The notes under the pieces: generated by a model
Seen by the model: only the letters and a program-made list of their open reading frames with translations
What the model was told of the DNA's origin: nothing
Database searches by the model: none
Virus record (IMG/VR): IMGVR_UViG_3300045988_177018
Coordinates: 49,928-113,927 of that record
Direction: 5' to 3' (one strand)
DNA: 64,000 nt
Origin: a virus
Shown here: piece by piece, positions 28,987-62,140 of the stretch
Numbering within the stretch: the first letter of the stretch is position 1
Layout: each line of letters starts with the position of its first letter
Made by a program: the position numbers and the translations under genes

Positions 28987-29008
28987 TTGTGTGAACAATT
29001 CCAGCATA
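28987..29008 (-). promoter_or_regulatory. Conserved promoter/leader motif copy
   Basis: ttgtgtgaacaattccagcata. Confidence 0.55.
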
Positions 29009-29027
29009 GCATAGAATAGAGAAACGC

Positions 29028-35913: not shown

Positions 35914-37725
35914 TTAGATTGCGTCGGGGAATTGTTCGGTCGGGGAGAATTTCAGAAGCTTCACCGTCGCCCCTTCACGCCACTTGTTCCACGCCTTGAC
36001 GGTGATTCCTACGATGCGTCGGCGGCTTGTGCGGTCGCTGTGCGCTCCACGCTTGTTGATGTCGAACAGTGTGTTTCGCAACACGAGGATGGGATTCCCT
36101 TCGTCAAGGTTCGCACCGGTGGCGAGCATGTCGAAGAACCTTTCGCACGCCTCCCCGTCGATTTCGGAGAACGTCCAGTAGATGAGCGCGGCCATGCTGA
36201 CGGACATGAGATGGTTGCTTTTCGCGTAGAACGCGCTGGCCTGTCGTAGCGTGTCCTCCAATCGTGGAGTGTTCTCGATGAAAGACAACAGTTCGTTGCG
36301 GGTCGGGGAAGCGCTGTTCAGGCATGCCGCTTCGACGCCCAATTGTTCGCTTAGATAGATGGAACGGGCGACGGTGGCGAGCTGTTTAGTGTTGGAACGG
36401 CCTTGTAGTTCGAGCACGTTCGCCATGGTTCGTGTCTTGCCCGCGTCCATGGTCTCCTGTGTTTCCTCCGGCAGTCCACGGATGACGAGGGTGCGGAACG
36501 GCACGCCGGATTCGACGCAGGCGAGGAGCCTGTGCTGTCCGTCCAACAGACGTCCCGTGCTGCTGAATTTGATTGCCTCTCCGTTCATCTGCCATGCCTG
36601 TTGCGCCATGGTGCGGGCGAACAGTTCGACCTGTTTGCGGCTCACGTTGCGGTTGTTGGTGTTCGAGCCGAGCATTTCCTTCGCCATGTCGGGCGTGATG
36701 GTCTCGACTCGTCCGGTGATGGTGTCCCAATTGGTTTCGCCGGTCGTGGCGGCACGGTTTGGAGTGGCTTTCTCCACCGGTTCCTCCGGTTTCAGGTGGA
36801 TAAGCAGAGTGGTTTTCGGCTTGCCGGAATGCCGTCTGGTTTCGGCTTTCGGAGGCTTCACTTCGACCGTCTCGTATTGTTCCGTCGTGTCCGCCTGATT
36901 CGCGGCGAAGGCGTACGCGGTCATGGTGAACGCGAGCATGAACCTGTCCACCGCCCGCTTCGGCGGGAACATGCCCATCTCGTCCACGATGCGGGAGATG
37001 TTCGACGGGGTGATGTACGGGCAATGGTTGACGACCGTATCCAATCCCGTCTCGTATTCCCTCTGTCCGAAGAATACGAACGGCGCTAGGGGAGTGCGGG
37101 CCTGAGCCATGCCACGGTAGCATTGTCCGACCTCATCGTAGATTTCGTTGATTTTACGGAGTGAGGATACGGCGTCGATACCGTTCCCGTTCACGGCTTC
37201 CGAATAATCGTATCCGCTGCTTTTGAACAGGCGCTCATTGTATCGGCTGGTGTCTCGCAGTCCGGGGCATCGTCCGAAGCCGAGCGTTGTCCCGTTGCCT
37301 TTCGTACCGTCCGCTTTTTTCAGATTCCCCTTGTTGAACCAGTATGCCTCCATGTCGGCTGAGAACGGTTTCGCCGTTACCTGTTTGGTGAGGTTGCGTC
37401 CGGTCATGCGACCGAAGTATTCGCCGTCCATGTTGACGAGCACGGGAAGTCCGGTGCCGATGAAAATGTTGTCTGGAATCAGGTCGTACCATTCCGGCAT
37501 GATGTCGTGGCCGTCCATGTAGTTGAGGATTCGTCCTACGCTGGCACGGTCGATGAACACGGTGTCGGCTTTGGCGAACAGGTCGATGTCGAGGGTCAAC
37601 GCTTTGCATACGGGTTGCAGGTCATGCTGAATCATGGTCATGAACCGTGGCTCGGTTTTCATGTCTTTGCTGGACATTTCACTTCTTTCAAGTGTTTCAG
37701 CATACGGTAGGTTTTCGGAGCGCAA
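35914..37725 (-). CDS. ParB-like nuclease (ParB/Srx) domain protein with large unknown N-terminal domain
   Basis: 603 aa. LLDGQHRLLA ParB-N motif at about aa 385. Confidence 0.55.
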   Translation of the reverse strand: MRSENLPYAETLERSEMSSKDMKTEPRFMTMIQHDLQPVCKALTLDIDLFAKADTVFIDRASVGRILNYMDGHDIMPEWYDLIPDNIFIGTGLPVLVNMDGEYFGRMTGRNLTKQVTAKPFSADMEAYWFNKGNLKKADGTKGNGTTLGFGRCPGLRDTSRYNERLFKSSGYDYSEAVNGNGIDAVSSLRKINEIYDEVGQCYRGMAQARTPLAPFVFFGQREYETGLDTVVNHCPYITPSNISRIVDEMGMFPPKRAVDRFMLAFTMTAYAFAANQADTTEQYETVEVKPPKAETRRHSGKPKTTLLIHLKPEEPVEKATPNRAATTGETNWDTITGRVETITPDMAKEMLGSNTNNRNVSRKQVELFARTMAQQAWQMNGEAIKFSSTGRLLDGQHRLLACVESGVPFRTLVIRGLPEETQETMDAGKTRTMANVLELQGRSNTKQLATVARSIYLSEQLGVEAACLNSASPTRNELLSFIENTPRLEDTLRQASAFYAKSNHLMSVSMAALIYWTFSEIDGEACERFFDMLATGANLDEGNPILVLRNTLFDINKRGAHSDRTSRRRIVGITVKAWNKWREGATVKLLKFSPTEQFPDAI

Positions 37726-39983: not shown

Positions 39984-40216
39984 TGTTGCCTGACGAGCGT
40001 TCCCAAGTGTCACTGCTTCTCATACTGCTGTCCATTCTGAGCTTGTCCGCAATGGTTCATTACGCCCGTCTTTCCCTTGGACGCATGAGCCGTATGCCTG
40101 ATGAGGAGTCCCGTTCCGACCTGTTCAACTATCGGCTGATGACTGTGATTTCACTGTTGGTGTTGACCGTCTCGGTCGTAGCCATCATCGCGTACAACAA
40201 GTCTTTTTACCAGTGA
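39983..40216 (+). CDS. Small membrane protein
   Basis: 77 aa with two TM helices. GTG start overlapping the upstream stop. Confidence 0.4.
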   Translation: MLPDERSQVSLLLILLSILSLSAMVHYARLSLGRMSRMPDEESRSDLFNYRLMTVISLLVLTVSVVAIIAYNKSFYQ

Positions 40217-41220
40217 CCCCACGGTTTTCCACGAGGACACGTGAACCAATTCCCGAAAGGTGGAGCATATTGAACAAAACGGAGATTCTGCGTCTGGTCA
40301 AAGCCGCATGCGACGAAGACCATTTGAGATTCGCGCAGCAAATCAGATTATTGGCCGACTCCTACGAGCAGGAAAAGCCATCCGCCTCCGTTGACAGGCT
40401 GCGACGGCTAGCCGAACTGGAACAGGCGAAAGGGCAGTCATCCAATCCGAACCTGACCCCGGTGGACGGGTTGACCGAACCGCTGCCGGTATTGGACGGA
40501 ACGCACGAGCCGGTCTGGGACAAGACCGTAGAGGAGACGCTGGATGGACTCGTGGAGGAGCACCGTCATTCCGACGTATTGGTTTCGCACAATCTCACCC
40601 CACGGAACAAAATCATCCTTACCGGAGCGCCCGGCACGGGCAAGACCACGTTCACATCCATACTCGCCGAACGTCTCGGATTGCCCGGCATCGTTCTTCG
40701 TGCTGACCGTGTGATAAACAGTCAGCTCGGCAAGACCTTGAACAACATCGCATTGGTGTTCGACCGGCTCCACGCGGAACGTCGGCTTCTTTTCATCGAC
40801 GAATGCGACATGCTTCTCGCCCGTCGAGACAACGTTCAGGATGTGGCGGAGATGCGCCGCGCAACCAATTTCATGTTGCAAAAAATCGACTCGCTTCCCG
40901 ACGATTGCGTGCTCGTCTGCGCGACCAACATGACCAGTCTCATTGACCGTGCCGCATGGCGACGGTTTGACGTGAGAATCCGGTTGAACATGACGGACAA
41001 GCCCGCCTCAAGGATTATCGTCGTCCGTCGTCTTAAGGAACTGAACGTCAAATCCGATGTTCCAGCCGATTTCGACATGTCCGGCGTCAGCCCATCCCTG
41101 CTTGTCCAAACCGTAGACGGTTTGGCTCGTAACGCTTTGATTTCCGGGTCGGAGACCATTCCCACGGAAACGCTTCTCAAAGCTTTTGACTCTTTGAAAA
41201 AGGAGATTCCAAACCTGTGA
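40213..41220 (+). CDS. AAA+ ATPase (classic AAA module)
   Basis: ILTGAPGTGKTTF Walker A. LLFIDECDML Walker B. Sensor/arginine-finger region. Confidence 0.7.
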   Translation: MTPRFSTRTREPIPERWSILNKTEILRLVKAACDEDHLRFAQQIRLLADSYEQEKPSASVDRLRRLAELEQAKGQSSNPNLTPVDGLTEPLPVLDGTHEPVWDKTVEETLDGLVEEHRHSDVLVSHNLTPRNKIILTGAPGTGKTTFTSILAERLGLPGIVLRADRVINSQLGKTLNNIALVFDRLHAERRLLFIDECDMLLARRDNVQDVAEMRRATNFMLQKIDSLPDDCVLVCATNMTSLIDRAAWRRFDVRIRLNMTDKPASRIIVVRRLKELNVKSDVPADFDMSGVSPSLLVQTVDGLARNALISGSETIPTETLLKAFDSLKKEIPNL

Positions 41221-43251: not shown

Positions 43252-43524
43252 CCAGCGAACACTCCGGTCAGACAGGTTGTTAACAGTCGGAACGAGGTGT
43301 TCTGTATTTTCAATTTACGAGTGTAACGGCTTTCGCCATTCCAAAACAGAGAAAACGGGAAACAACCCTCCCTTCCAAGCCGGTAGGTTCCATCCGAAAA
43401 ACGGAACCAAGAGAAAGAGTCCGATGGCGGGAACGAAAAAACAGGAACGACGATTAGGGCATCGCCTGAAGAAGAACAGGGCAAGCCGTCCGCCGCGCCG
43501 GTAGGTCAGCATGAACAGCGGACT

Positions 43525-44265
43525 TCAAAAAAAGAGAGAAGAAACCACACTGAAAACAAAAATCCAAGAACACCATGCCATCAAAAAGAAGAACCAAGAA
43601 AAACAGAAAAGAAGAACCAAAAGAATAAAACCCGATAGGAAGAAGAGACCACATCAGAAGAAAAGAAGACAGCAACGACACAATCAAGAAAGAACACCGG
43701 TACAAGAGAAAAAAGAACAGAGGACAACGGCAGAACAAGAAGAACAATCCATACCGTAAATCAGGACACGACGTAACTAAAGAACCAAACGCAGAGCAAC
43801 CAGCCACCACAAGACAACAGGACAAGCGCATACGACCCAGCAGAGAAGAAAAGCAACAGCACCAAACACTCGAAGAGCATAAAGCGACAAACAAAAGAAC
43901 CACAAGGCAACAGGACGCAACAGACAAAAGCCCACACAGAAGAACAGACTGCAAAAACACTCGACAGCAAAAACGCAAACAGCAGAAGCCACGCCACATA
44001 AGACGGCAACAAACCCAGAGAAGAAAGAACCGGCACGCCAGCAACCACATCACAATCACAACAACGCCCCACACGGCCAACCAGACAACAAAAAGGTCAA
44101 TAGTCACACCAACAAGGTCAACAACAAACAAAACAAGGTAACATCAATACAGGAACAGCCAATGCAATGAAAAAGCAACAGCAGAACCAACCAAAAAACC
44201 AAATATCAAAAACTATAAATGCCAGAACTTGGACAAAACCGTGAACGTTCCGATGAAAACAACGG
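43525..44265 (+). other. About 0.74-kb T-depleted (A/C/G-only-like) tract on the top strand; non-coding
   Basis: By inspection T is far under 10% and A about half of bases on the top strand. ORFs in it are stop-codon-free artefacts. Confidence 0.7.
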
Positions 44266-44268
44266 AAC

Positions 44269-45483
44269 ATGACCCATCAGGAGGCGGTCTTATTGGAAAA
44301 ACGGACGATTTCCCTGATAATCGGCTCCGGAGGGCTACTTACGACCATTAAAAAAGCCCTCACAAGAGTCGGAAACATGCGCTGGCAGGTGCCCGCCGCA
44401 GACAACATCCAAGCTCAGGCCGACTATCTGGTCAGACACCCGGTGCCATCCGGGTTCAAAGGAATCATCTTCACCGACAGAGCAGGAAACTGGCTTCCGA
44501 TAGCGAACGCCGGTTATATCGTCTACTGGTGCGACACGGGGCAGATACCCGTGGGAGCCATGGGCATGAGCGAGCAGATGCTACGGATGAGTGTGGCTGA
44601 TTTCGCTCACGCGTATTGGGGAATCCAACTTGCCGACAAGCGTCTTGTGGTCGATATTCTCCAAAACAAAGTGAAGGAGACTGCGGTTCTCCTGCCCATC
44701 ACATCCAATACCGGAGGCGTCGGGAAAACCACCTCCAGCAGACAGCTGGCTGACCGTGCGTCACAGGCCGGACTGCGTGTCCTGCTCATCGACGGCAACA
44801 TTCGACAGTCCAGCCAACGTAGCTTCTTCGACCCGAAACAGGACAAGCCGTTGCATACGATAGCGGACTGGCGACCGGGCATGCAGGCGCAGGTCGGAGC
44901 CAATCGCGGACGCAATCTCGGAGTCCCATACGACATCTGCTTCGCACCTCCGGCAGGTATCGGAGTGGACTGGCAGATATACCGTCAGTACATTCAGGCG
45001 GCTAGGCGGTTATGGGATTTCGTGGTGCTCGACCTCGACCGAATCAGTGCGGACGACTTGGACGACAGGGAGAACATAGCCAACGGTCTGCTTCTCCCGT
45101 ATATTCAGTCTGGCGACCCTTGTCTGGTCATCGTCAAGGCCGGAAGACAGACGCAGATTGACGCGTTGAATCTGCTGACTGCGATGGCGGAGCATCATCT
45201 TCCGAAGGAACTCATCGGAATCAAAGACACGGTTCCGGTCGGACTGCAAGACTATCGGCGACTCGACTACACGCGGTACGGAACGTTCCTCGGAACCGAA
45301 TACCAGACGGTGGAGGCGAGCAACCATATCGCCAACGGTGATGTCCGATGGGATGACCCCGGGCTTGCCTTCGCACGGGAGAACATTCTCAACTGGGCGT
45401 TGCCCGACCGTGGCTTCAATCCTGACAGGTTCAATCCGAACGCGAACGACGATGACAGAAGGAAAGGTCGTGGACGCAGATGA
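44269..45483 (+). CDS. ParA/MinD-like P-loop ATPase domain protein (VirC1-like candidate)
   Basis: Deviant Walker A TSNTGGVGKTTSS in the middle of a 404-aa protein. First gene after the T-depleted tract. Confidence 0.5.
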   Translation: MTHQEAVLLEKRTISLIIGSGGLLTTIKKALTRVGNMRWQVPAADNIQAQADYLVRHPVPSGFKGIIFTDRAGNWLPIANAGYIVYWCDTGQIPVGAMGMSEQMLRMSVADFAHAYWGIQLADKRLVVDILQNKVKETAVLLPITSNTGGVGKTTSSRQLADRASQAGLRVLLIDGNIRQSSQRSFFDPKQDKPLHTIADWRPGMQAQVGANRGRNLGVPYDICFAPPAGIGVDWQIYRQYIQAARRLWDFVVLDLDRISADDLDDRENIANGLLLPYIQSGDPCLVIVKAGRQTQIDALNLLTAMAEHHLPKELIGIKDTVPVGLQDYRRLDYTRYGTFLGTEYQTVEASNHIANGDVRWDDPGLAFARENILNWALPDRGFNPDRFNPNANDDDRRKGRGRR

Positions 45484-46676
45484 CTTTCGATGACCGGTAC
45501 CTGTTTGACCCGAACGACGAGAATCTTTGGAAGACTGGAAGCATTGCCGACTGGTATAAAGGCAACGACATGTACGAAATGGAGCATCCCGGACTGTTCG
45601 CGCAAACGCACCCGTGGTTCGTAGCCAATAAACTGTTCGCGGAGACGATGGTCAAAGCGAACAGTGAACTCGTGTCAAGCATCCTTGGCGCTTTGTTCAC
45701 ATGGAAGACCTGCACGGTTGACCAGTTGCGTGCGGGACTTTCCATCAAAGGCGCTCCCGCTTTCGAACGTGAAGAGCCGAACCTGTATGGGGCGATGAAC
45801 CGTTTGGGAATCATCAACGTCGGTTTCAGTCAAGCGGAACGCCTTTACGGCAAAACCGTGAACCATGTTTGGCTGTCCCCATCGAACAGTCCACGACTCA
45901 TCAACCGTGCGATGAAAACGTATGGCATGGAGAAGTGGATGCGTGAGACGATGGCAGCTTCCTATTATGCGGGGAACCGTTTCCATGTACGCCATAACAC
46001 CTATGCGGCGCACGTGGGATTGATGCTGGCCCGCGACTCCCGCGTCAGGTTTTCCTCCGGCGACGGTTGGGGAAAATTCCGTAGCGTTGACCCACAGGCG
46101 GTTGCCGAGTCGAAAGTCGGCAAGGCGTGCGCGACCGACGTGGTCACATTGTGCCGCAACAACGTGCTTGCTGGTATCGAAATCCAAACGTCGAACAGCG
46201 AATTGGACAGGAAGATGCAGAACTGGGCGAAGATGCTCGCCTACTCTCCGATGAAACGTCGCGGTCTCATCTGCGTATGGTTGCAGATACCCAAAGCGAA
46301 CGAAGGGTATGAATCGTTCAACGCGGTGGTGCAGCGTACTCAGGGCATGACGGAAATGGTCGTAGGTAATCCGACCGTTTCGCAAAGAATGGGAGTCGCG
46401 GTCTGGGATGAATGGTTCGAGCATGGTGTTCCGACCGGCAGTTTCGGAGACTACACGGACATGAGTGGAATTCGCCGCAACATTTTCTCCGACGAGTGGA
46501 CGCAATACACTCCGCAGGTTCGTGACGTTCGCAAAGTCAGCGAATGGGGTTGGGATGTGACGCGTGACATCATAAAAAAGGATTGGGGTTGGGATGTTTC
46601 CGGTTGGACGATGCCGGAAGCATACCGTGGCGGCTTCTACGGTTTCATCGGAAAGGATTGTGATGGCCTCCACTGA
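45480..46676 (+). CDS. Hypothetical protein (candidate relaxase-like / DNA-processing protein)
   Basis: 398 aa. His cluster FHVRHNTYAAH. Sits between the ParA-like gene and the T4CP gene. Confidence 0.3.
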   Translation: MTFDDRYLFDPNDENLWKTGSIADWYKGNDMYEMEHPGLFAQTHPWFVANKLFAETMVKANSELVSSILGALFTWKTCTVDQLRAGLSIKGAPAFEREEPNLYGAMNRLGIINVGFSQAERLYGKTVNHVWLSPSNSPRLINRAMKTYGMEKWMRETMAASYYAGNRFHVRHNTYAAHVGLMLARDSRVRFSSGDGWGKFRSVDPQAVAESKVGKACATDVVTLCRNNVLAGIEIQTSNSELDRKMQNWAKMLAYSPMKRRGLICVWLQIPKANEGYESFNAVVQRTQGMTEMVVGNPTVSQRMGVAVWDEWFEHGVPTGSFGDYTDMSGIRRNIFSDEWTQYTPQVRDVRKVSEWGWDVTRDIIKKDWGWDVSGWTMPEAYRGGFYGFIGKDCDGLH

Positions 46677-47124
46677 AGAATCATTTCAACAGACACAAGA
46701 AGCGTTGGATACTGCGAGACTGGAACGGGCGCGAGCATTGCAACAGGTTCAGACATTATGCGAGACGGGACGCAGGCATTTGGTCATTCCGTTTCTGATG
46801 GCGAACATGCAACGTGTTCCCTCGTTACGGAAAATACGACTCTGGCAATTGGATTCGATAATGTTCAACACTTCCAGACGGGTTGCGAACAAAACCATCC
46901 GTATCATGCGTGAGACCATCAACGATGGTTCGAGCGTGAACGACGGGTACGTGACTTTGGGCTGGGCGTTGGAGTCGAAGGAGAAAACCGTCCGTATGAC
47001 GACGTGGCTTCTTCAATTGTCATTGCGCGAGAAGCTTTCCACTTTCCAAAAGCCGGAAGGCTTCCCATATGCGCCGTTATATCAGCAAAGCACAGACGAC
47101 CAACAGAAAGAAGGTAGCGCATGA
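46666..47124 (+). CDS. Hypothetical protein
   Basis: ORF from MASTEES, coupled to the T4CP gene. Confidence 0.4.
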   Translation, partial: ASTEESFQQTQEALDTARLERARALQQVQTLCETGRRHLVIPFLMANMQRVPSLRKIRLWQLDSIMFNTSRRVANKTIRIMRETINDGSSVNDGYVTLGWALESKEKTVRMTTWLLQLSLREKLSTFQKPEGFPYAPLYQQSTDDQQKEGSA

Positions 47125-49781
47125 GTGGCCAGAACTGGTATCAGATAACCAGAACATTGCAACAGCTTGACGCGGACGAGCAACGTTCGAAGGTGGAGAG
47201 CATTCCCGCTGAACTGGACGGTTGCACACTGCTCCTCATCAAGAAAGGCGAGGAGCCGGTCAAGGAATACATTTACGGCGACGGCGAGGGAATCATCAAC
47301 GCCGGACAGTTGGCTGGATTCGACGCGAAACTGGTCGAAGACGATGATGGGCCGGTGTTGCCGGACGGTGTGGACAGTGCGGCGCATCCTCTCGTCCCGT
47401 TCCGTGCCCGGTTGAATTCGAAAAGCAACATGGAGAAAATGCGGACGAACTATTCCGGCATTCGCACAAGCATCGAGAAGGTCATGCCGCCGGACAGTTA
47501 CGTGAGCGTCACCCTCCGCAATCAGGGATACTTCGAACAGATACGCGTCCGCAATTGGATTAGCGACGAATACAATACCGTAGAGGATTCAAGCGAACTC
47601 GCTTCGACCAACACGATGTGCGCCCGAGTGAGTTTCGGCTGTAGACAGGCTTCCCGCGACCGGCAGCTTGCGCAGAAGATTGGCCAAATCATCTGTCCGC
47701 TCATATCCAACATGTCAAGTCATACGAGCCGTCCGAAGTTCGGGCTGCTGTTCGTCGGCATGTTGCTGGAAGCGTTGTCTTTGATTTGGAGCGTGTGCGG
47801 TCTTGCAAGAGGATACGTGATGGATGGCGTGTTCCCGCTGTTTCATTCCGCTTGGGGTTTCGGCGTGGCTCTTCCACTGCTTGCTGTGACATTGGTAGCG
47901 TTCCTGCTCCTAATGCTGCTGTCATGCATTCCGTTCGTCTATCTTCCGCGACCTCAGATTGCGGGAGTGTCCGTCGCCTTCGCCTTTTACCTGCTGTTGG
48001 GGCTGCTTCCTCTCCCCACGTTCGTTCCGGTTCTTCTCATCCCTCTTCTCGTATTCGCGTTCATCCGTTGGAGGAACTGGACGTTGTGGGATGATATTTT
48101 CCAGACTCCGCGCAGATATTATGCGATTGCGAACGACCGTGGCGCGAACGATTCCGACAACCATACGCGTCTTGGCGTCAGAACGAAGGAGTCGCGCGTA
48201 TCCGCTTACGGTGCGCAGAGAACCACGTTGATTCTTCCTCCGATTATCGTAAGCTCCGTGTTCACCCCGGTCACTCAGGGAGTGGCGATGAAACAGGAAT
48301 TGCATCCCGTTCCGGAAGTGTTGGCGCATGACGGTATCTTCCTTGGGAAGGACGATACCGGACGTGACTGCTATCTCGACCCGTCGCAACTGTTCGGCGG
48401 TATCGCAATCAACGGCGAGGCCGGTTCCGGTAAGACAGTGCTCACGCATGGCATCAGCCAGTGGGCCATCAGCGCACGCGAGACCACCAGTCCGAAAATC
48501 TGGGGGCGCGACTCCCGTATCATCCACTTCTGGATGAAGGATGATACGGGAGTGAACGTGTTGGAACGTTACCGCAGACACCACGGTTTCACCAGTCCGC
48601 AACGCGTCGTCTATTTGGCCGACCCGAACAGTGTGTGCTTGGACATGCTCGGCATGAAGGACGGAAACAATGCCATGGAGACTGCGGCGAGCGTTGCCAA
48701 GACCATGCGCTACTCGTTCGACGACGGCGACATTCTCAATGATTCGCAGAACATCATCACCCAAGCGTTGACCATCGGCGTGGCGGTTGACCGTTACGTG
48801 CAGGAGGAACGCAAACGCAATCCCGACTCCAACGACGCGGGTTGGGAGAGTGAGATTGTGAAACGCTGCCATCAGCTCGAACAATCGTATCCGGGTGCGG
48901 AACAGTTGCGGATGCAGTTGAGTCCAATCGGATGGGCGGTCGTCGCATTGTGTGGCTCCGACGGTCAGGCGGGTTCCGCCAAAGCGTTGGGGCATGTGTG
49001 CCGCGCGTTGACCATGGAGTTGAAAAGCGGCTACATGTTCGACGAGATGACGTATGCTGCCCGTGCCGCCGAACAATTGTATGGCCGTCCGGATGCTGCC
49101 GGACATACGGTTCGTTCCGACCGTGACATTCTCGCCAAGACTAACGCCTCGTTGAACAAGGTCAACCAGTTCCTTCCCATCGAACACATGTTCACGGCAC
49201 GTCGCGGCAAGGTGACGTGGACGAACATTCTCGACCATGCCGGAGACTACCACATCGTTCTCGCGCCGCATGAAGGTTATTCGCTGCCGGAACGTATGGA
49301 TAAGATTCTCGGCGGATGGCTCATGTACCGTTTCTGGAACACGGTGTTCTCGCATTGCAAGGATTGGGACAAGGCTGGAAAGTGGACGATGCTCGTATGC
49401 GACGAGCTAAGTCTGCTGGCGAACGGCAATGATGGCATCATGCCCGCCTTGCGCGAGCAAGGTCGCTCGTTCGGATTGCTTCTCGTGTTCGCCACGCAGT
49501 ATCCGACGCAGTTGTCCTATGCGATGTTGGATTCGTTCATCGGCTATTCGACGTTCATCACATACAATACGACGATTCCCCGTATAGCCGACATGACGGC
49601 GAAACGTCTGACGAACAATGATGGCGAGGATGGCTGGCGTTCCGGCGCGGTCATGAACCTTCCGCGTTATGCTGCGGCTGTGCGAACGCGCACTCAGGAG
49701 CAGTTGCAGCCGACGTTCCTTGTCCATGTGAACGATTTCGATGACGGCTATCGTGATGGCGACGTGGAGGAGGACGACTAG
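47121..49781 (+). CDS. Type IV coupling protein (VirD4/TcpA/FtsK-like ATPase)
   Basis: 886 aa. TM block at about aa 200-320. Walker A GEAGSGKTVL. Walker B LVCDELSLL. Confidence 0.7.
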   Translation: MSGQNWYQITRTLQQLDADEQRSKVESIPAELDGCTLLLIKKGEEPVKEYIYGDGEGIINAGQLAGFDAKLVEDDDGPVLPDGVDSAAHPLVPFRARLNSKSNMEKMRTNYSGIRTSIEKVMPPDSYVSVTLRNQGYFEQIRVRNWISDEYNTVEDSSELASTNTMCARVSFGCRQASRDRQLAQKIGQIICPLISNMSSHTSRPKFGLLFVGMLLEALSLIWSVCGLARGYVMDGVFPLFHSAWGFGVALPLLAVTLVAFLLLMLLSCIPFVYLPRPQIAGVSVAFAFYLLLGLLPLPTFVPVLLIPLLVFAFIRWRNWTLWDDIFQTPRRYYAIANDRGANDSDNHTRLGVRTKESRVSAYGAQRTTLILPPIIVSSVFTPVTQGVAMKQELHPVPEVLAHDGIFLGKDDTGRDCYLDPSQLFGGIAINGEAGSGKTVLTHGISQWAISARETTSPKIWGRDSRIIHFWMKDDTGVNVLERYRRHHGFTSPQRVVYLADPNSVCLDMLGMKDGNNAMETAASVAKTMRYSFDDGDILNDSQNIITQALTIGVAVDRYVQEERKRNPDSNDAGWESEIVKRCHQLEQSYPGAEQLRMQLSPIGWAVVALCGSDGQAGSAKALGHVCRALTMELKSGYMFDEMTYAARAAEQLYGRPDAAGHTVRSDRDILAKTNASLNKVNQFLPIEHMFTARRGKVTWTNILDHAGDYHIVLAPHEGYSLPERMDKILGGWLMYRFWNTVFSHCKDWDKAGKWTMLVCDELSLLANGNDGIMPALREQGRSFGLLLVFATQYPTQLSYAMLDSFIGYSTFITYNTTIPRIADMTAKRLTNNDGEDGWRSGAVMNLPRYAAAVRTRTQEQLQPTFLVHVNDFDDGYRDGDVEEDD

Positions 49782-49949
49782 CTGTCAGATTCCGGCTTGA
49801 CAAGTTGAAGTGAATCCGTTCGGAACATCCAGTTTCCGGACGGATTTTTTTAGCTTAAAAACCCCGCTATAGATGGAAACAGCCGTGTAGGTTGATAGGA
49901 TGAAGAACGCAGGAGAGTTCCGTTTGGAAAAACGAAAGGGAACTCAAAA

Positions 49950-50294
49950 ATGGGTGGAACCGTCACCTTGGCTGGAAGCAGTATGGAGAACACCTATCAT
50001 AGGATGTTCGACACTATTTTGAGCAGTAGCGCGGGAACCGTGCTGACCAATATTGGTCTTGCTGCGGCAGTGATTCTCGCCCTCGGTCTTATCGGCGGTG
50101 GTATCTGCAAGGCGTTGGGACGTCAGAACAAACTCGTGCAGATGTTCTGCCCGACCATCGGTCGTGTTCTCGTCATTCTCGCAGTCGGCTTCATTCTTGC
50201 AGGCCCGACCGTCACCATTCCGGCAATCCTGAAATTGCTCGACTGGTTCGTTGACGCGTTCGGCGGCAGTGGAAAGTCTTATCTGGGAATCTGA
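49950..50294 (+). CDS. Small membrane protein (pilin/VirB2-like candidate)
   Basis: 114 aa with two long hydrophobic helices. Confidence 0.4.
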   Translation: MGGTVTLAGSSMENTYHRMFDTILSSSAGTVLTNIGLAAAVILALGLIGGGICKALGRQNKLVQMFCPTIGRVLVILAVGFILAGPTVTIPAILKLLDWFVDAFGGSGKSYLGI

Positions 50295-50399: not shown

Positions 50400-50822
50400 A
50401 TGAGCGACGAGGAAGACGAAGGATATAAAGGCCCATTGCATCCAAGATTGACGATGGACGACATCACCGAAGTGTCCGGCCCGGAGGAAATCGAACGGAA
50501 GAACACGTTCCAGATAACCAAGAACACCGAAGCGCGTTCCAAAACCGTGTTCTCCGTCATCGTCGGAGCATTGGTGGGCTTGGCGCTCTGCCTCATGTTC
50601 GCTCCGCTGCTTGGATACATGTTCAGCTCGTTCTTCGTACTGTTGGGCGGCGCGTTGGCCCCGTTCTTCGCAGTTGGAACCATTCGAGACCGCACCCAGC
50701 AGACACGGTGGAAAAGGGCCTTGCAGGACATGAAGAGCCGCAAGATTGAAGGACAGGTCTTCTATCCGAATTCCACCCAGCCGGAAAACATCATCGACCT
50801 TCAGGAAATGGAAATCCGTTGA
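50400..50822 (+). CDS. Small membrane protein (TcpE/VirB3-like candidate)
   Basis: 140 aa with two TM helices. Confidence 0.4.
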   Translation: MSDEEDEGYKGPLHPRLTMDDITEVSGPEEIERKNTFQITKNTEARSKTVFSVIVGALVGLALCLMFAPLLGYMFSSFFVLLGGALAPFFAVGTIRDRTQQTRWKRALQDMKSRKIEGQVFYPNSTQPENIIDLQEMEIR

Positions 50823-53800
50823 ATACAAAATATCGAGACCCAGTGAGACGGGCTGGCGGAAGGAACCTGCTCGTCATTCTGATGTTGTGCATGGTCATGA
50901 CATTGTTCGTATTACCTGACAGCGTGTTCGCCGCGCCGTCCGACGGTTCGATAACGACGGCGACATGCGCCAACGGTGGGACGGGTGGTGCGACGTCGGA
51001 CATCGCAAGCTGTCTTCCTTCCGGACGTTGGGGAAACTATGTAGGCGAAATCATTTCGCGTACCGAACCGTACAGTGGCAGTGACGTCGCGGGCTGGTTC
51101 TCCAATGTCAAGCAGACCATCAATTCGCAGATGCATGTCGTTCTTCCCAACGTTCTGATGCAGTTGACTCAGGTCTGCTGGTCATCCGCATTGTCCATCA
51201 GCCAGTTCGCCGCTTCGTTCGAACCGATGAAACAGGCTGGCGCGAACATTGACTCCGCAGTGGCCACTCTGGTAACGAGTCTGATGAACGGAGGGATTCC
51301 CGCCACCATCGCAGTGCTGGGCATCGTCGCTTGGGTTGGCGCGGCCGGATTCCAAATCGGCACCGTCAAAGAGGCAAGCAAACGAATCATCATCATGGTT
51401 CTCTGCTTCGCTTCAATCACGATACTTGGCACGGGAGCCGCGAAAACGGGGAGAAACGCCACGGAACCTGCGACCGGAAGCCCATGGTGGGTCGTGCAGA
51501 CCATCAACAACACCATCAACAAACTGTCGGTCAATCTTGACCTTGACGGCATGGCCGACGGCGATAAGAATATGATGTCCTATTACCATAGCGGCGATGG
51601 AGCAAAAACCAACTGTCAGGACTACCTGTACTACATGCATCAGGCGTATGACGAACAGGCCGCATCCTATGGCAATCAGGATACGAGCAACATCACCAAG
51701 GCCATCAACCGTATTTGGGAGGAGACGTCTCTTCGCTCGTGGGTGACCATGCAGTATGGAAACCCGCAGGCCACCGGAACATCCTCGTTCCGAATCGCGG
51801 AGAACGCGCGGCAGGGATACTGCCACGTGTTGGAAATGAAAGCCAATACGAACACCACCATCCAAAAGGATTTGACCAACAAGGCCATGTCGTTGCATAT
51901 CAGCGACCAGAGGGCTAAATGGCTGTTCTCTGTAGACGGTTGGGTTGACCCTCGTCACCCTTACTTCACCGACAAGCCGTTGGAAAGGGAGAATGCGACG
52001 TATCTCAGCCGTGCGGGAGTGTTCTGGGAGACATGCGGAACGAAACGCAATCAGGAAATCTACGCACGTTCCGGCTGGGCCACGCTCATCAACAATCTTG
52101 GCGATGCGGGAACCAAGGACATAAAGAACGGCAGCACGAAGGTACGTGTCAAGATTAACGACTTGGACAATGTGAAACCGACTAACGGTGGCACGGGGTT
52201 GATGGACGCCAAACAGAGCGGAACCGAAGCCGAGACCATTCAACAGACCACATCGGTCTGCCAGACGATTCTCAAACAGGATTCCGCAATCTTCGCCCGT
52301 AGCTCCGACATCGACAAGAATGATGACGGCGGTTACAAAGACCAGCAGAACAACACCAATTGGGGTGATTCCGCAACGGTCGGCTGGCGTTTCGACGTGC
52401 CGAACGTTTCCGGAACTTGGAGCGAAGCCAATCTTCGTGACGCTCAGGATGATTCCACCGTCACAGGCGGCGCGAAGAAAACCCTCGACTACATGTACGG
52501 GAACAACAACGTTGACACGTTGGGGGCTTGCGGAAGTCTCCTTGGCGGCATCGTCAATCTTGTGGTCTGGGGATTGTTGAGCCTTGTCCTCATCCTGACG
52601 AAGCTCATGCTGATAATGATGGCTTTGTTCCTCGTGGTCACGTTCCTCATCCAAGCGTTCCCTATAGGCGAGAAGCCGAAGAAGGCGTTGAAGAATTGGA
52701 CCGCATACACATGCCAGTTGAGTATGGTCGGCGCATTGTATGGAGCGTTGGGCGCTCTCGCCACGTTCATCTGCGGTCTGACGTTGAAGTTCACGTCCGC
52801 CAGTAGCGGCTCGTTCACCTACCAGCTGATTGCGGGGGTGAGCCCGCTGCTGGCCTTCGCGTCCATAAGCATGTTCTGCTCAAAGGTGCTGAAGTGGGGT
52901 AATCCGTTCAGCATCAACGCCCTCATGGGCATGGCCGGAGGAACCGCCATGGCTTCCGGCATCCGCACCGGCATGCGCATGATTGGACAGCACCGTATGA
53001 TGCAAGCCATGCGTGGCGGCTTCCGTCGCGGAGGCGATGGTGCCGGACGCTTGTCCACGAACGGTACCGGCGCTGGCATGGCGCATAGCGGAGCACGTCA
53101 GAGCGCGACCGTCCTGAGCAAGATGAGCCGCGCACAGCAGGAGGCGTTGTCCAACGGCGACAGGAACCTGCTGAACCGTAGTCAGAGCGAATTCGAAGCG
53201 CTCCAATCCCACGGACGCAAGAGCAGGACGTGGGCAAGAATGGACGCCAACACGGTGAGGGGAAGTCTCGCCGGTGCTCGACTCCACATGGAAGAGTCCC
53301 ACGACAAGTTCCGGCAACGGTTGAACACCGCCGCCTCCAAGTTCAAGGGAGCGGACAACACTGAAGCGTTCGCGCATCGTATCGCGCAACGTCATCCGGG
53401 CATGTCTCTCGACAAGGTTCAGCGTAGGGCGGAGATGATGAATCATCTGAACAATGCTGGACGTGCGCTTCAAGGTGCGGCCAGAGTCGCAGGGGCGGGT
53501 GCCGCAATGGGCGGAGCCGGTCTCGCGTTCGCCGTACGCGCAGCGAAGAGCGCTCCTTTGCGTAATGTCGCCGCACGCGGTGCGAAGGTAGCGGCTAAGG
53601 CCGCCGTCACCGGAGCTTTGTTCTCCAATCCGATTACCGCACCGTTGGGATTGGTCGCAGCCGGAAAGCTGGCCGCCGACCGTAACCTGCATCATGGTCT
53701 AGCGGTGGGTGCGGGAGCCGCGATGGACAAAATCCGCGACATCAGGAACGCCGCTCCCGGCAGTGTGAGGGAACGCGACCAGTGGCGTCGCAACGTGTTG

Positions 53801-54820
53801 GGCATGGCTAATGGTGACGCTCCGTTGTCGTCTCCGTTCTCCGGCACCGGTGACGGTGGTTCCGCCAATGGTGACAGTCCTATGCCTTCTCCGACAGCTC
53901 CGACTCCGAACACCCCGACCCAAACCGGTGGTGTCGGTGGCGCGTCGCCGATTCCGACTGACGCTCAGACCGAGACGATTCCGATTGACGGACAGACGGA
54001 AACGATTCCGGTGGGCACTCCAACTGAATCGGTTCCGGCCGACACTCAAGGACAACAGTCTCCGGTGTTGACCGAACAGTCCGCGTTCAATCAGGTTCGT
54101 GAGGGAATGATGGCAGATTTCACGAATAACCAGCACATGTCCCAAGAAGAAGCGGAACAAGCGTTCCAAGAGGCCGTCTCCTCCGGCGAGGTCGATAATT
54201 CCGTCCAAGCGTACATGCGCCAGAACAATCAAGCCTCTAACGAGAACGTGACCGCCCAACCTGAAGCGGACGCCAACCAGCCGGTGTACAACACCGAGAC
54301 GGGCGAGGTTGTAGGCGAGACTCTGCCGTCCGGAACAATGGACGCCGCCGTGGCCGCCGCCTCCACTTGGCAGAACGCGACCGGAAACACGACTCCGATT
54401 CCTGAATCGGTGAACAATGCGCTGCAACAGGCGTACATGCGCGAGAATCCGGTGCAGCAGTCTCCGGAGGAGCATTTGCGGATGGCGCAGGAGGAGTGGA
54501 CTAGGACGACTGGTCTTCCGGGCGATATGATGCCTGCGAGTGCGGAACGTGCCATGAATCCGAATGGAATTCAGCCGAGTAGAGAATTCACGGTTGATTC
54601 CGGTCAGACGCAACAGCAGTCTCAACCGCAGCCACAAGCTCAGGTAAGACAACAACCGTCGGTTCGAATGCAACCGCCAGCCACACCGTCTCCGACCGTC
54701 AAACCGCCGGTGGACGCCAACCCGTCAAACCTGACAGGTTTCCCCGTCGTAGGCAATCTTCGTATGAAGAAACCGCCGACCGGAGGACAGCCGACATCCA
54801 AGCCGCCGTTCATGAAGTGA
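50819..54820 (+). CDS. Large polytopic conjugation membrane protein (VirB6/TcpH-like) with disordered Pro/Thr/Gln-rich C-terminal extension
   Basis: 1333 aa. Multiple TM segments in the first about 650 aa. Low-complexity C-terminal third. Confidence 0.55.
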   Translation: MNTKYRDPVRRAGGRNLLVILMLCMVMTLFVLPDSVFAAPSDGSITTATCANGGTGGATSDIASCLPSGRWGNYVGEIISRTEPYSGSDVAGWFSNVKQTINSQMHVVLPNVLMQLTQVCWSSALSISQFAASFEPMKQAGANIDSAVATLVTSLMNGGIPATIAVLGIVAWVGAAGFQIGTVKEASKRIIIMVLCFASITILGTGAAKTGRNATEPATGSPWWVVQTINNTINKLSVNLDLDGMADGDKNMMSYYHSGDGAKTNCQDYLYYMHQAYDEQAASYGNQDTSNITKAINRIWEETSLRSWVTMQYGNPQATGTSSFRIAENARQGYCHVLEMKANTNTTIQKDLTNKAMSLHISDQRAKWLFSVDGWVDPRHPYFTDKPLERENATYLSRAGVFWETCGTKRNQEIYARSGWATLINNLGDAGTKDIKNGSTKVRVKINDLDNVKPTNGGTGLMDAKQSGTEAETIQQTTSVCQTILKQDSAIFARSSDIDKNDDGGYKDQQNNTNWGDSATVGWRFDVPNVSGTWSEANLRDAQDDSTVTGGAKKTLDYMYGNNNVDTLGACGSLLGGIVNLVVWGLLSLVLILTKLMLIMMALFLVVTFLIQAFPIGEKPKKALKNWTAYTCQLSMVGALYGALGALATFICGLTLKFTSASSGSFTYQLIAGVSPLLAFASISMFCSKVLKWGNPFSINALMGMAGGTAMASGIRTGMRMIGQHRMMQAMRGGFRRGGDGAGRLSTNGTGAGMAHSGARQSATVLSKMSRAQQEALSNGDRNLLNRSQSEFEALQSHGRKSRTWARMDANTVRGSLAGARLHMEESHDKFRQRLNTAASKFKGADNTEAFAHRIAQRHPGMSLDKVQRRAEMMNHLNNAGRALQGAARVAGAGAAMGGAGLAFAVRAAKSAPLRNVAARGAKVAAKAAVTGALFSNPITAPLGLVAAGKLAADRNLHHGLAVGAGAAMDKIRDIRNAAPGSVRERDQWRRNVLGMANGDAPLSSPFSGTGDGGSANGDSPMPSPTAPTPNTPTQTGGVGGASPIPTDAQTETIPIDGQTETIPVGTPTESVPADTQGQQSPVLTEQSAFNQVREGMMADFTNNQHMSQEEAEQAFQEAVSSGEVDNSVQAYMRQNNQASNENVTAQPEADANQPVYNTETGEVVGETLPSGTMDAAVAAASTWQNATGNTTPIPESVNNALQQAYMRENPVQQSPEEHLRMAQEEWTRTTGLPGDMMPASAERAMNPNGIQPSREFTVDSGQTQQQSQPQPQAQVRQQPSVRMQPPATPSPTVKPPVDANPSNLTGFPVVGNLRMKKPPTGGQPTSKPPFMK

Positions 54821-55277: not shown

Positions 55278-55507
55278 TTTTCGTCGCCGGACTTTCGGAT
55301 GCCGTGTCCGTTTTTCTGCGGGCACGGCATTTTGTTTTCCTGTTTCGCCGTTCAGCCTGTATGCCGGTTCGCCGTTTTGTCGGAACGTTGATGGAAATGG
55401 TTTTATGGTTCGGCGTGCCGACTGTTCCACGTTGTTATCCTTGATTACGAATCCATACCCCCACTATGGTTTCGTCCACACCGAAAGCCGAAAAAAGGAA
55501 CACAGGC

Positions 55508-56170
55508 ATGAGAATCAAAAACGATACGGTCATCATCACCGTCGCCATCATCAAGGGCGGTTCAGGCAAAACCACTACGGCAATGGCATTGGCCGAACTG
55601 TTGCACAAGCGCGGAGAACAAGTCACGGTCTTGGATTCCGACAACACGGGCGGCGCGACCATGTGGGAAATGTACGTCGAACAGGAAAACCGGCGACGTA
55701 AAACAGAAAACCCAGACGCGGAAGACTATCATCTCGGATTCCCCGTCATACAAACCAACGAAGCCATCCTCAACAATCCCGAACTCATCCGTGAAAAATA
55801 TTCCGGCTGGGTCATCATCGACACTCCACCATCCGACGCCGGTGTCGTACAGGCTGCGATAAACGCGGGAGACGTGGTGATAATCCCATGCCAGCCGTCC
55901 GTTTCCGATTTGACCCATGCCGGACGCACGTATGCGGCGGCACGAAACGGCATCGTCCTGTTGACCCGCGTGAAACCGCGAACGAAACTCGCCCGCAACA
56001 GCATCAGCGAACTCGACGAGGAAGGCATCGCACGATTCGAAACCGTCATCACGGAACGTGAGGCCATCAAGAACATGTATGGCACGACCGAAATCGACAA
56101 CAAGGAGTATTCCAGCGTCGTGCATGAACTCATCGACTATCTGACGGCAATCAATCTGGTGGAAGAATAA
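55508..56170 (+). CDS. parA: ParA partition ATPase
   Basis: N-terminal deviant Walker A IIKGGSGKTTTAMALA. About 220 aa. Confidence 0.75.
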   Translation: MRIKNDTVIITVAIIKGGSGKTTTAMALAELLHKRGEQVTVLDSDNTGGATMWEMYVEQENRRRKTENPDAEDYHLGFPVIQTNEAILNNPELIREKYSGWVIIDTPPSDAGVVQAAINAGDVVIIPCQPSVSDLTHAGRTYAAARNGIVLLTRVKPRTKLARNSISELDEEGIARFETVITEREAIKNMYGTTEIDNKEYSSVVHELIDYLTAINLVEE

Positions 56171-60984: not shown

Positions 60985-61277
60985 TTTGCTTGGCAATTCT
61001 CCGGTGCCGGACTTGACGTGGCTTTCTTGCCAAGAAAAAACTGTGAAGAAAATTTTTCCTGTTTTTCCGGTTCCTCGCCAGATGAATGTTCGAGGTCGTT
61101 TAATGTGTTGATTGAGACCGGGTTTTTGGCCGTTTTCCGCCATCTTGGTTTCTTCCCCGGTCTCGGCTGGGACTCCTTAGCGGGAGTGCCTTTGCGGTTC
61201 CGTCGCCCGTGTGTGGATTTTGGGGCGGCGGAACCTTTTCTGTCTCTGTTGCCGGTTTTCCAAAACAGAAGATGATG

Positions 61278-61300
61278 TTATACTGGAAACGTTCACGCAA
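61278..61300 (+). promoter_or_regulatory. Conserved promoter/leader motif copy, plus orientation
   Basis: ttatactggaaacgttcacgcaa, about 32 bp upstream of the 61332 ATG. Confidence 0.5.
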
Positions 61301-61331
61301 AAAAGGATAAGCCAAAACCAAGGAGACGAAA

Positions 61332-61703
61332 ATGAGCGACTACTTCAACAGCATCGACTACCAAATCAACCTCATGCTCGACCGCGAACAAGACCTCCAA
61401 GACGAATACGACCGGCGACTGCGGGACGTGCGCGAAGGCGTCGGGGATTACGTGCTCCTCCCCGAAGGCGACCCATGGAAACTCGACGATTACGAGCAAG
61501 ACCCCCAGCCGACCAACATCCTCGACACTTGCAGCCATGGATTCTACATCGCCGAAGGCGCGAAGACGGGAACCATGTACCACCTCAGCCCCGACCTCGG
61601 ACTGTGGGAGGCGTGCGACGACTACGAGGACATCGAGCAGATGGTCGCGGACGGCAGACCGCTCACCCAGCCCATGGACAACTCCGAATCCACGCTCGGC
61701 TGA
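61332..61703 (+). CDS. Hypothetical acidic protein
   Basis: 123-aa ORF. Confidence 0.45.
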   Translation: MSDYFNSIDYQINLMLDREQDLQDEYDRRLRDVREGVGDYVLLPEGDPWKLDDYEQDPQPTNILDTCSHGFYIAEGAKTGTMYHLSPDLGLWEACDDYEDIEQMVADGRPLTQPMDNSESTLG

Positions 61704-61746
61704 GGAATATTTTTTCAGGAACCTTCATCGTTCTCAAAATACTGCG

Positions 61747-61765
61747 TTATACTGGAACCAGCCGC
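61747..61765 (+). promoter_or_regulatory. Conserved promoter/leader motif copy, plus orientation (partial)
   Basis: ttatactggaaccagccgc. Confidence 0.4.
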
Positions 61766-61784
61766 AAACAAGGAAGGTTTCTTC

Positions 61785-62126
61785 TTGACCATCGAAACAG
61801 GCAATACGGGCAGCCAACCCCAACAACGCTCCCGCCCACGCCGAGACCTCGACACCATAGGAGGATTCCTCGACTCCTGCAAGGACGAGACGCCAATCCT
61901 TCTCTACTTCGACACCGCCGAAGGCATCCAACGCGTCCCCACGCTTCTGGGAGACCCACCCACCGTGGGACAGCTTCGACTCAACAACTATCTGCGTCCG
62001 CTTCTCATACGCGAGCGCGAACGCTACCAGATAGCCGGAACCAGCGAAACCGGTTGGGTTATCAGAATCAACAGCCGATTCGAGCCGGAAGAATATCTCA
62101 GAGAGTCGAAAGCCTTAGCCTCTTGA
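61785..62126 (+). CDS. Hypothetical protein
   Basis: 113-aa ORF with TTG start. Confidence 0.4.
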   Translation: MTIETGNTGSQPQQRSRPRRDLDTIGGFLDSCKDETPILLYFDTAEGIQRVPTLLGDPPTVGQLRLNNYLRPLLIRERERYQIAGTSETGWVIRINSRFEPEEYLRESKALAS

Positions 62127-62140
62127 ACGACCAGAACAAT

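Follow-up and report, generated by a model that had tools for sequence, protein, structure and literature searches.

MOBC relaxases, represented by TraX of pAD1/pTEF1 and MobC of CloDF13 (Pfam PF13814), are winged-helix PD-(D/E)xK enzymes whose genes adjoin the gene coding for the type IV coupling protein (T4CP) (PMC12857230, PMC6736028). In pTEF1 the TraX homologue is encoded just 3' of the T4CP gene. The Bifidobacterium breve megaplasmid pMP7017 transfers by conjugation (PMC10832533, PMC4908950), and no relaxase is found among its 223 annotated features. A literature search that did not include Bottacini 2015 (pMP7017) and Francia 2013 (TraX) returned neither a relaxase for pMP7017-type plasmids nor an account of the 398-aa protein family described below. 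The DNA analysed here, a window of 64,000 nt from IMG/VR record IMGVR_UViG_3300045988_177018 (positions 49,928-113,927), is syntenic with pMP7017. A preliminary description of this window saw no canonical relaxase motif set anywhere in it, and a Pfam scan of its 38 larger ORFs agrees, since no relaxase family is found among them. The window also encodes a VirB4-like protein, a CHAP/lysozyme hydrolase and ArdC.

The co-directional ORFs of the preliminary description were all recovered and form a four-gene unit on the + strand with successive gene overlaps of 4, 14 and 4 nt. The unit codes for a ParA/MinD/BY-kinase-class P-loop ATPase of 404 aa (44269..45483), whose stop is involved in the first overlap, for a protein of 398 aa (45480..46676), for a conserved protein of 153 aa without functional assignment (46663..47124), and for an 886-aa T4CP of the TrwB/VirD4 type (47121..49781). 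The latter has an N-terminal domain (residues 1-200), four membrane helices (207-318) and an ATPase domain (400-875) with the Walker A motif GEAGSGKT (432-439). It combines the TrwB-like nucleotide-binding and all-alpha domain fold with an N-terminal membrane anchor and Walker A/B motifs, and differs from TrwB/VirD4 by its additional 200-residue N-terminal domain and by having four membrane helices instead of two. None of the Pfam/NCBIfam T4CP models (T4SS-DNA_transf, TrwB_AAD_bind, TraG-D_C) matches it; its pACHL01 homologue reaches 19.1 bits on TraG-D_C, under the cut-off of 22. A profile search of PDB sequences with the coupling protein found HerA (E 6e-5). The 153-aa protein is 59-60% identical to proteins of pMP7017 and B. 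longum; its longest ORF begins at position 46594, and the length of 153 aa was retained because conservation with these relatives starts at M24 of that ORF.

The 398-aa protein occupies the position of a relaxase, as had been noticed in the preliminary description: its gene adjoins that of the TrwB-like coupling ATPase on a conjugative replicon type without recognisable relaxase. Neither this protein nor the 153-aa protein has a match in Pfam, NCBIfam, PHROGs or PADLOC. Its structure model (pLDDT 85) combines a winged helix with a PD-(D/E)xK restriction-endonuclease fold. The winged helix-turn-helix region lies at residues about 62-117 (45663..45830, + strand), and the nuclease core, recognised from secondary structure and from conservation among 151 relatives, at residues 170-269 (45987..46286, + strand). 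The core elements follow the order alpha-beta-beta-beta-alpha-beta: a helix carrying R171-H172-N173, a strand ending in G194-D195, strands with D220 and with E234-x-Q236, a helix with K245 and W249, and a fourth strand. The catalytic core is structurally closest to CCGG-family type II restriction endonucleases (NgoMIV, Cfr10I, Bse634I, SgrAI, AgeI) and to the nickase N.BspD6I. In several CCGG-family enzymes one catalytic residue comes from the helix after the third strand, and K245 is likewise carried by the helix that follows the third strand. A search of PDB sequences with the family profile gave a single match, to a histone, which we judged to be due to chance. The 398-aa protein is predicted from its model to be a DNA-binding, restriction-enzyme-like nuclease. 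The earlier suggestion of a divergent or new DNA-processing enzyme holds insofar as the protein is predicted to be a nuclease that also has a domain for DNA binding, and belongs to a family, of about 258 clusters, that lacks a Pfam or NCBIfam model; its pMP7017 homologue is WP_241487321 (50300-51499 of that record), and the kind of enzyme itself has a precedent in MOBC.

The 151 relatives have an overall identity of only about 20%. Among them H172, D220 and E234 are each kept in 150 and K245 in 149, which indicates selection for an intact active site in the family. Further conserved positions are G194 (148), R171 (146), an acidic residue at position 195 (145) and W249 (138). The histidine cluster to which the preliminary description attached weight, FHVRHNTYAAH (residues 168-178), is the first core helix of the PD-(D/E)xK domain. 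Its significance as a cluster did not hold up: most relatives have Y/F at position 169 and E at position 178, and only H172 is kept family-wide. HUH relaxases (MOBF/P/Q/V) and the Rep_trans MOBT enzymes share with the 398-aa protein the genetic position and presumed role beside the T4CP. An HUH or Rep_trans identity, for which the preliminary description proposed a check, is ruled out by the PD-(D/E)xK fold, the lack of a Pfam match and the pattern of motif conservation; the protein has no HUH motif, and differs in fold and chemistry. No tyrosine is conserved across the 151 members, so cleavage is predicted to be more likely hydrolytic, or to proceed via H172, than to occur by phosphotyrosyl transesterification.

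The closest solved folds comprise, besides restriction enzymes, the CRISPR ancillary nucleases Can2 and Card1, and the window carries defence-type genes for an IteA-like ATPase and a GmrSD_C protein next to the already mentioned ArdC. This could suggest that the nuclease acts like a restriction enzyme in defence or anti-defence and is no more than a passenger in the transfer region. Such a role appears highly improbable: PADLOC has no match, a methyltransferase or sensor partner is absent, and neither the start/stop overlap with transfer genes nor the strict adjacency to the coupling ATPase gene over a wide phylogenetic distance would be expected of defence cargo.

The resemblance to the MOBC relaxases is one of architecture. 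In both families an N-terminal winged helix precedes a PD-(D/E)xK catalytic domain, the gene lies beside the coupling-protein gene and an HUH motif is absent. The order of elements is also common to both, with a helix bearing an invariant His, a Glu strand, an Asp strand, a Glu strand and then Lys. The 398-aa family is larger (about 400-600 aa versus about 260), with an additional segment at the N-terminus and a C-terminal domain rich in Trp, and is so far restricted to Actinomycetota. Its active-site pattern is D...E-x-(T/Q)...K plus H, whereas TraX has DEE, and W249 stands where TraX has its essential tyrosine (Y181). Membership of the family in MOBC was tested at the sequence level and no significant relationship emerged. 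Of 60 family members, not one matches the Replic_Relax profile PF13814 at E <= 0.01, a profile on which the pTEF1 TraX homologue itself scores just 28.5 bits. Comparison by hhalign of the family alignment with a 26-sequence TraX alignment gave a probability of 16%, covering the winged helix only, and the nuclease cores alone gave a non-significant E of 0.21 against TraX.

The 398-aa family and that of the coupling ATPase occur in exactly the same 16 actinobacterial megaplasmids, pMP7017 included, with adjacent genes in all 16, and MOB-suite types every one of these replicons as non-mobilizable and relaxase-less. In GTDB genomes, 26 of 43 loci have an ATPase gene that ends directly where the nuclease gene begins. 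The coupling ATPase is absent within 8 kb in the other 17, some of which have an integrase or a primase-like gene instead, an arrangement as would be expected of mobilizable elements. We consider the 398-aa protein the best candidate for the missing nicking enzyme that starts transfer of these plasmids. That it is the relaxase of the pMP7017-type conjugative megaplasmid, a candidate oriT-nicking enzyme working like MOBC TraX/MobC rather than like HUH relaxases, is a reading in which we place evenly balanced confidence. The protein could instead be an accessory or regulatory DNA-binding factor linked to the T4CP: it might assist the relaxosome, confer specificity by binding oriT or repress the operon, the nick being made by another, unrecognised plasmid protein. 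The winged helix is indeed similar to MarR/ArsR regulators, and Steczkiewicz et al. took the comparable Replic_Relax architecture for a transcription regulator (PMC3424549). The window and pMP7017 encode many large proteins without assignable function, for example those at 35914-37725 and 61211-62872 of the window, which have neither a Pfam nor a PDB match, and scans beside the nuclease gene found no oriT signature (see below). We nevertheless think that such an accessory function is improbable. About 150 diverged sequences retain all the catalytic residues (H, D, E and K with acidic 195) almost without exception, which suggests that the enzyme is active and the fold has not degenerated. In addition, the T4CP has no other co-varying candidate in Bifidobacteriales and Micrococcales: tblastn found no match to the ParA-like, 153-aa or VirB4 proteins at up to 8 kb from the nuclease gene at any of the 43 genome loci.

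The ATPase encoded first in the unit is assigned to the ParA/MinD class because it passes the Pfam cut-offs of CbiA (30.3 bits, cut-off 25.4) and AAA_31 (27.6 bits, cut-off 27); its NCBIfam matches to eps_fam and ParA are all under cut-off. It carries an N-terminal extension of roughly 140 aa. Its earlier description as ParA/MinD-like stands, and the added label VirC1-like is valid at the superfamily level only, as the VirC1 model (PF07015) is not among its Pfam matches. That model does match the other ParA of the window (55466-56170). The arrangement recalls VirC1/VirD2 of Agrobacterium in that a gene for a ParA-class ATPase is translationally coupled to that of a candidate relaxase, 5' of the T4CP gene. 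The 404-aa ATPase differs from VirC1 in being best matched by generic CbiA, AAA_31 and BY-kinase-type P-loops, and in escaping detection near the nuclease gene in the 43 loci. The ParA-like and nuclease genes remain paired in divergent relatives; they form the tightest pairing in the Bifidobacterium lineage, which persists when 5 kb separate the pair from the coupling ATPase gene. Where an insertion parts the coupling ATPase gene from the nuclease gene, the 153-aa gene stays by the former.

This pairing would also suit a nuclease serving another DNA transaction, namely the processing of double-stranded DNA for FtsK/TraB-like translocation, multimer resolution, or a partition or positioning role together with the ParA-class ATPase. 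FtsK/SpoIIIE proteins could support a relaxase-independent route, as pMP7017 encodes two FtsK-like proteins and many Micrococcales loci have, 2-8 kb downstream, genes for a NERD nuclease and for an FtsK/SpoIIIE protein of giant size. We regard such a function as quite unlikely. Partition is already supplied by a canonical ParA with a small partner that adjoins RepA (the 55466-56170 gene mentioned above), no homologue of the ParA-like protein is detected up to 8 kb from the nuclease gene at the 43 genome loci, 26 of which have the TrwB-like ATPase gene adjacent, and the VirB4-like, hydrolase and ArdC genes of the window are typical of single-strand conjugation of the T4SS type.

Under the preferred reading of the 398-aa protein as a relaxase, its substrate could lie directly 5' of the operon, where a T-depleted, A-rich noncoding tract (43400..44200, + strand) is a candidate oriT, leading region or long leader. 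The intergenic regions on the two sides of the four-gene unit span 43252-44268 and 49782-49950. The tract reported in the preliminary description is real and the most extreme of the window: T accounts for 3-9% and A for about 50% in 100-nt windows, the lowest T content of the 64 kb. Folding of the single strand yields almost no structure (MFE -28 kcal/mol for 861 nt, z = +0.95). An unstructured tract of this kind recurs in the family, with equivalent base-depleted tracts 5' of the module in relatives. A coding function was rejected, with stops in all three + frames in the window and ORFs of L036 that translate into low-complexity sequence. Rfam has no match to the tract, and it contains no tandem repeats. 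The search for an oriT signature beside the nuclease gene by repeat, tandem-repeat and inverted-repeat scans gave low-complexity matches only, and the intergenic sequences of the window, pMP7017 and B. longum have one 13-mer in common, which is at chance level.

We propose that the winged helix would bind a site in or near this long intergenic tract and that the metal-dependent PD-(D/E)xK centre, composed of D220, E234 and K245 with D/E195 and the R171-H172-N173 helix, would cut one strand. The nucleoprotein complex would then be passed to the adjacent TrwB-like coupling ATPase, which would feed the DNA into a secretion apparatus that contains VirB4 and is encoded in another part of the window. 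By analogy with VirC1, the ParA-class ATPase may assist the assembly or positioning of the complex, and the 153-aa protein may also have a part in the process. Somewhat more tentatively, the family could represent a hitherto unrecognised relaxase class, specific to Actinomycetota, that arose from a restriction-endonuclease fold, either independently of MOBC or diverged from it past detection, with a His/Asp/Glu/Lys centre and without a covalent tyrosyl intermediate. Such a class would explain why the pMP7017 family, though conjugative by experiment, is scored as non-mobilizable together with a set of megaplasmids and chromosomal elements from actinobacteria. It may act on a new kind of transfer origin with long, unstructured tracts depleted in a single base.

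Plasmid typing and mobility prediction rest on relaxase detection. If the proposal is correct, current tools wrongly class as non-mobilizable a whole group of conjugative megaplasmids and integrative elements from actinobacteria that takes in the sole proven conjugative plasmid type of Bifidobacterium, common in human-gut B. longum. The family would then be a second, independent example of a relaxase of the restriction-endonuclease type, bearing on the question of how DNA can be piloted and rejoined by enzymes of this type when no covalent tyrosyl link is formed. It would also help toward mobilizable vectors for bifidobacteria, with one gene and one intergenic region pinpointed.

The four-gene unit is closed by a terminator-like hairpin on the + strand (49812..49847), located 31 nt past the stop codon of the coupling ATPase gene; its stem has 14 bp, of which 6 are GC pairs, and TTTTT comes after it. 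A second ORF of 886 aa is found in the window at 2837-5497. Its identification as a duplicate of the coupling protein was rejected, as it encodes an unrelated VirB4-like AAA_10 protein.

The four genes spanning 44269-49781 look like a single transcription unit. All are on the plus strand and encode, in order, a 404-aa ATPase of the ParA/MinD class (44269-45483), a 398-aa predicted nuclease and candidate relaxase (45480-46676), a small protein of 153 aa (46663-47124) and an 886-aa coupling ATPase (47121-49781). Successive genes overlap by 4, 14 and 4 nt, and 31 nt past the ATPase stop codon a hairpin with a 14-bp stem precedes a T-run (49812-49847). The longest ORF of the small protein begins at 46594; conservation with proteins of pMP7017 and Bifidobacterium longum starts at its M24 and supports the start at 46663. 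A metagenome gene call for this protein in a related locus (L010, 11382-11645, 87 aa) is too short. The preliminary description had proposed an oriT-processing locus from these four ORFs, all of which are present. Its idea of a divergent DNA-processing enzyme beside a type IV coupling protein (T4CP) holds as a prediction, and the weight it gave to a histidine cluster is not borne out.

The 398-aa protein is a member of a new, uncurated family. It is unrecognised by every family library searched, its 24 close homologues (all of about 400 aa) are unannotated, and none of 60 sampled family members matches the relevant Pfam families. An exhaustive profile search recovers 258 cluster representatives. 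About 100 have E <= 1e-10, and the majority are 430-600 aa long and cover profile positions ~6-323. AF2 models the 398-aa protein with confidence (pLDDT 85.4, pTM 0.83). Foldseek returns no significant match to this model, the top-ranking structures, though non-significant, being PD-(D/E)xK nucleases. The nuclease core comprises a helix carrying R171-H172-N173 (residues 170-185), a strand ending at G194-D195 (189-194), a strand just preceded by D220 (221-225), a strand with E234-x-Q236 (230-236), a helix with K245 and W249 (242-255) and a last strand (263-269). Among 151 full-length relatives, only ~20% identical, H172, D220 and E234 are each kept in 150, K245 in 149, G194 in 148, R171 in 146, an acidic residue at 195 in 145 and W249 in 138; no tyrosine is conserved across them. 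The cluster FHVRHNTYAAH is not an HUH triad, because core layout and conservation put it in the first nuclease helix: position 169 is variable, and at position 178 Glu (111 of the 151) outnumbers His (34). As modelled, the protein has the features expected of an active metal-dependent nuclease to which a sequence-reading domain is joined. We consider it rather unlikely that it is a non-nicking accessory or regulatory factor.

Relaxases of the MOBC class (TraX of pAD1, MobC of CloDF13; Pfam Replic_Relax) consist of a winged helix and a PD-(D/E)xK domain bearing a DEE motif; their genes adjoin that of the T4CP, and a covalent adduct with DNA has not been detected. TraX requires Y181, and the direct repeats that it binds lie 70-120 bp away from the nick (PMC12857230, PMC6736028, PMC5357655, PMC3424549). 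In pTEF1 the gene of a TraX homologue lies just downstream of its own T4CP gene. With its winged helix, its PD-(D/E)xK domain and its position beside a coupling-protein gene, the nuclease family would, as far as architecture and context go, work as MOBC relaxases do. Unlike TraX, however, its catalytic pattern is not DEE and a Trp takes the place of the TraX Tyr. None of the 60 sampled members matches the MOBC profile PF13814, a profile on which TraX itself (the pTEF1 homologue) scores just 28.5 bits, so that its sensitivity calls for caution. Using hhalign against a 26-sequence TraX alignment, only the winged helix aligns (probability 16%), and the two nuclease cores compare at E 0.21; when the cores are aligned permissively, Glu pairs with Glu, Asp with Asp and Glu with Glu. 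Neither profile match nor catalytic pattern supports membership of the family in MOBC, and the 398-aa protein is most plausibly a variant of the restriction-endonuclease-type relaxase.

No Pfam relaxase family matches any of 38 larger ORFs of the window, in agreement with the earlier remark that a canonical relaxase is not visible there. The locus is syntenic with pMP7017, a conjugative megaplasmid of 190 kb from Bifidobacterium breve JCM7017, and with related B. longum megaplasmids (identities of 51-52% for the nuclease and 57-63% for the ATPase); the exact protein is found also on a 90-kb metagenome scaffold. Conjugative transfer of pMP7017 has been demonstrated (PMC10832533, PMC4908950), despite its typing as 'non-mobilizable' in PLSDB/MOB-suite. 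The names of its 223 annotated features include no relaxase, Mob, TraA, Rep_trans or replication-relaxation protein, and a search of literature other than the original pMP7017 description found no relaxase assignment for plasmids of this type. For the relaxase that is missing from pMP7017-type elements, and from other conjugative elements of actinobacteria, the 398-aa protein is the leading candidate.

The 886-aa protein has no T4CP match in Pfam or NCBIfam. A five-sequence profile hits only HerA in the PDB (E 6e-5), with FtsK and the EssC-family ATPase YukB at non-significant E values of 0.16-1.1. Its AF2 model (pLDDT 82.2) has an N-terminal domain (1-200), four membrane helices (207-318) and an ATPase (400-875). 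The protein is 26% identical (E 7e-35) to a pACHL01 homologue named by PGAP 'type IV secretory system conjugative DNA transfer family protein', a name shared by a 57% identical Bifidobacterium isolate homologue. The model and these named homologues support its earlier assignment as a T4CP, as a divergent member. Pfam scores of the 404-aa protein exceed the cut-offs for CbiA and AAA_31; it has weak ParA and BY-kinase matches and none to the VirC1 model. Its ParA/MinD assignment is retained and 'VirC1-like' stands as an analogy only.

A tblastn search of 72,556 plasmids finds the nuclease and ATPase families in exactly the same 16 records, from Bifidobacterium (6), Curtobacterium (3), Arthrobacter (2), Pseudarthrobacter (2), Paenarthrobacter, Glaciihabitans and Euzebya (1 each). 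These plasmids measure 149-608 kb, all 16 are typed non-mobilizable, and in all 16 the two genes are adjacent; in pACHL01 they overlap by 7 nt. Divergent Bifidobacterium-type contigs keep two pairs, ParA-like gene with nuclease and small protein with ATPase, even across a 5-kb insertion between them. A survey of one genome per GTDB species gives 43 nuclease loci, all from Actinomycetota bar one probably misbinned MAG, and spanning Micrococcales, Propionibacteriales, Dietzia, Gordonia and Acidimicrobiia. The end of the ATPase gene meets the start of the nuclease gene in 26 of them, and 17 have no coupling ATPase inside 8 kb (loci listed as such: L013-L015, L027, L032, L037, L039-L044, L047, L048, L050, L052-L054). 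The context of the latter, in the subset examined, is heterogeneous: those with an integrase (L047, 6170-8200; L015) or primase-like genes (L041, 9688-12051; L027, 10003-13257; Toprim/AAA_25 or DUF3854) may be mobilizable elements.

We favour, at roughly even chances, a role of the nuclease as the strand-nicking enzyme that initiates transfer; the analysis shows the fold, the residue conservation, the gene linkage and the lack of a known relaxase, and all that concerns activity, strand, site and partners is what we infer. After the winged helix has bound its recognition site close to the operon, one strand would be nicked at the D220/E234/K245 centre, aided by D/E195 and the RHN helix. The TrwB-like ATPase would then receive the complex, perhaps assisted by the ParA-class ATPase, and the VirB4-containing apparatus would export the strand. 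A defence nuclease is a very improbable reading, as PADLOC gives no match. Many Micrococcales-type loci carry a NERD gene and a giant FtsK/SpoIIIE gene (~1,400 aa) 2-8 kb downstream of the ATPase-nuclease pair (L003, 14103-19119; L004, 11218-16422; L016, L019, L020, L021, L023, L028, L029, L031, L033, L034, L038, L055), and pMP7017 encodes two FtsK-like proteins (record 97895-103210). They may form a second translocase system tied to transfer. That the nuclease acts in some other DNA transaction, for instance transfer of double-stranded DNA with the FtsK-like proteins or a function tied to ParA, seems to us distinctly improbable.

The tract directly upstream of the operon (43400-44200) could, as a guess, act in the transfer origin or leading region. 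The T-depletion reported there is real: T is at 3-9% and A at about 50%, the most extreme composition in the window. With stops in all three frames the tract is noncoding; Rfam gives no match and repeat scans find low complexity only. As a single strand it is nearly free of predicted structure (-28 kcal/mol over 861 nt, z = +0.95). The tract is kept across the family as a compositional feature, not as sequence. Four Bifidobacterium-type loci have their most T-poor 300 nt just upstream of the ParA-like gene, and many Micrococcales loci switch directly from an A-depleted tract (A 1-4%) to a T-depleted one (T 1-5%) that stops short of the ATPase gene. Outward from the switch point, 5' to 3', T is missing on both strands. 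One or both tracts occur in ~14 of 21 loci checked, for example at ~10960-11330 in the pMP7017 locus (L001), ~4300-4600 (L012), ~1376-1700 (L056), ~8326-8650 (L058), 4200-5350 (L016), 4550-5300 (L036) and 8100-8700 (L003). Upstream of the module, the intergenic regions of pMP7017 and the window have a single exact block in common, the 13-mer TCAATAGTCACAC (44097-44109; L001 11187-11199), which is missing from the B. longum locus and at chance level in a shuffle test.

Other genes of the window fit a plasmid backbone. They include a VirB4-like AAA_10 ATPase (2837-5497, minus strand), a lysozyme/glucosaminidase/CHAP wall hydrolase, ArdC, DnaB, and ParA with a RepA_C replication protein. Leucine-rich-repeat-variant or HEAT-like repeat proteins adjoin the VirB4-like gene (5865-7046, 7064-8317, 28037-29131). 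Two IS605-type OrfB/TnpB genes with a Cas12f-like TNB domain are present (13975-15417, 20428-21597), and several occur in pMP7017. Just upstream of the transfer-gene block, an AAA ATPase (40213-41220) partially matches the anti-phage ATPase IteA (165 bits, far under the 510 cut-off). Downstream of the coupling ATPase, two small membrane proteins (49950-50294, 50400-50822) precede a 1,333-aa membrane protein (50819-54820) with a Pro/Gln/Thr-rich carboxyl-terminal half and no family match; the arrangement is kept in relatives (1,023-1,325 aa) and the protein may belong to the channel of the secretion apparatus. Plasmid-borne secE and secG are found in pMP7017 (record 112814-113453) and in the related contig L058 (11748-12893), where they are inserted between the nuclease and coupling-ATPase genes.
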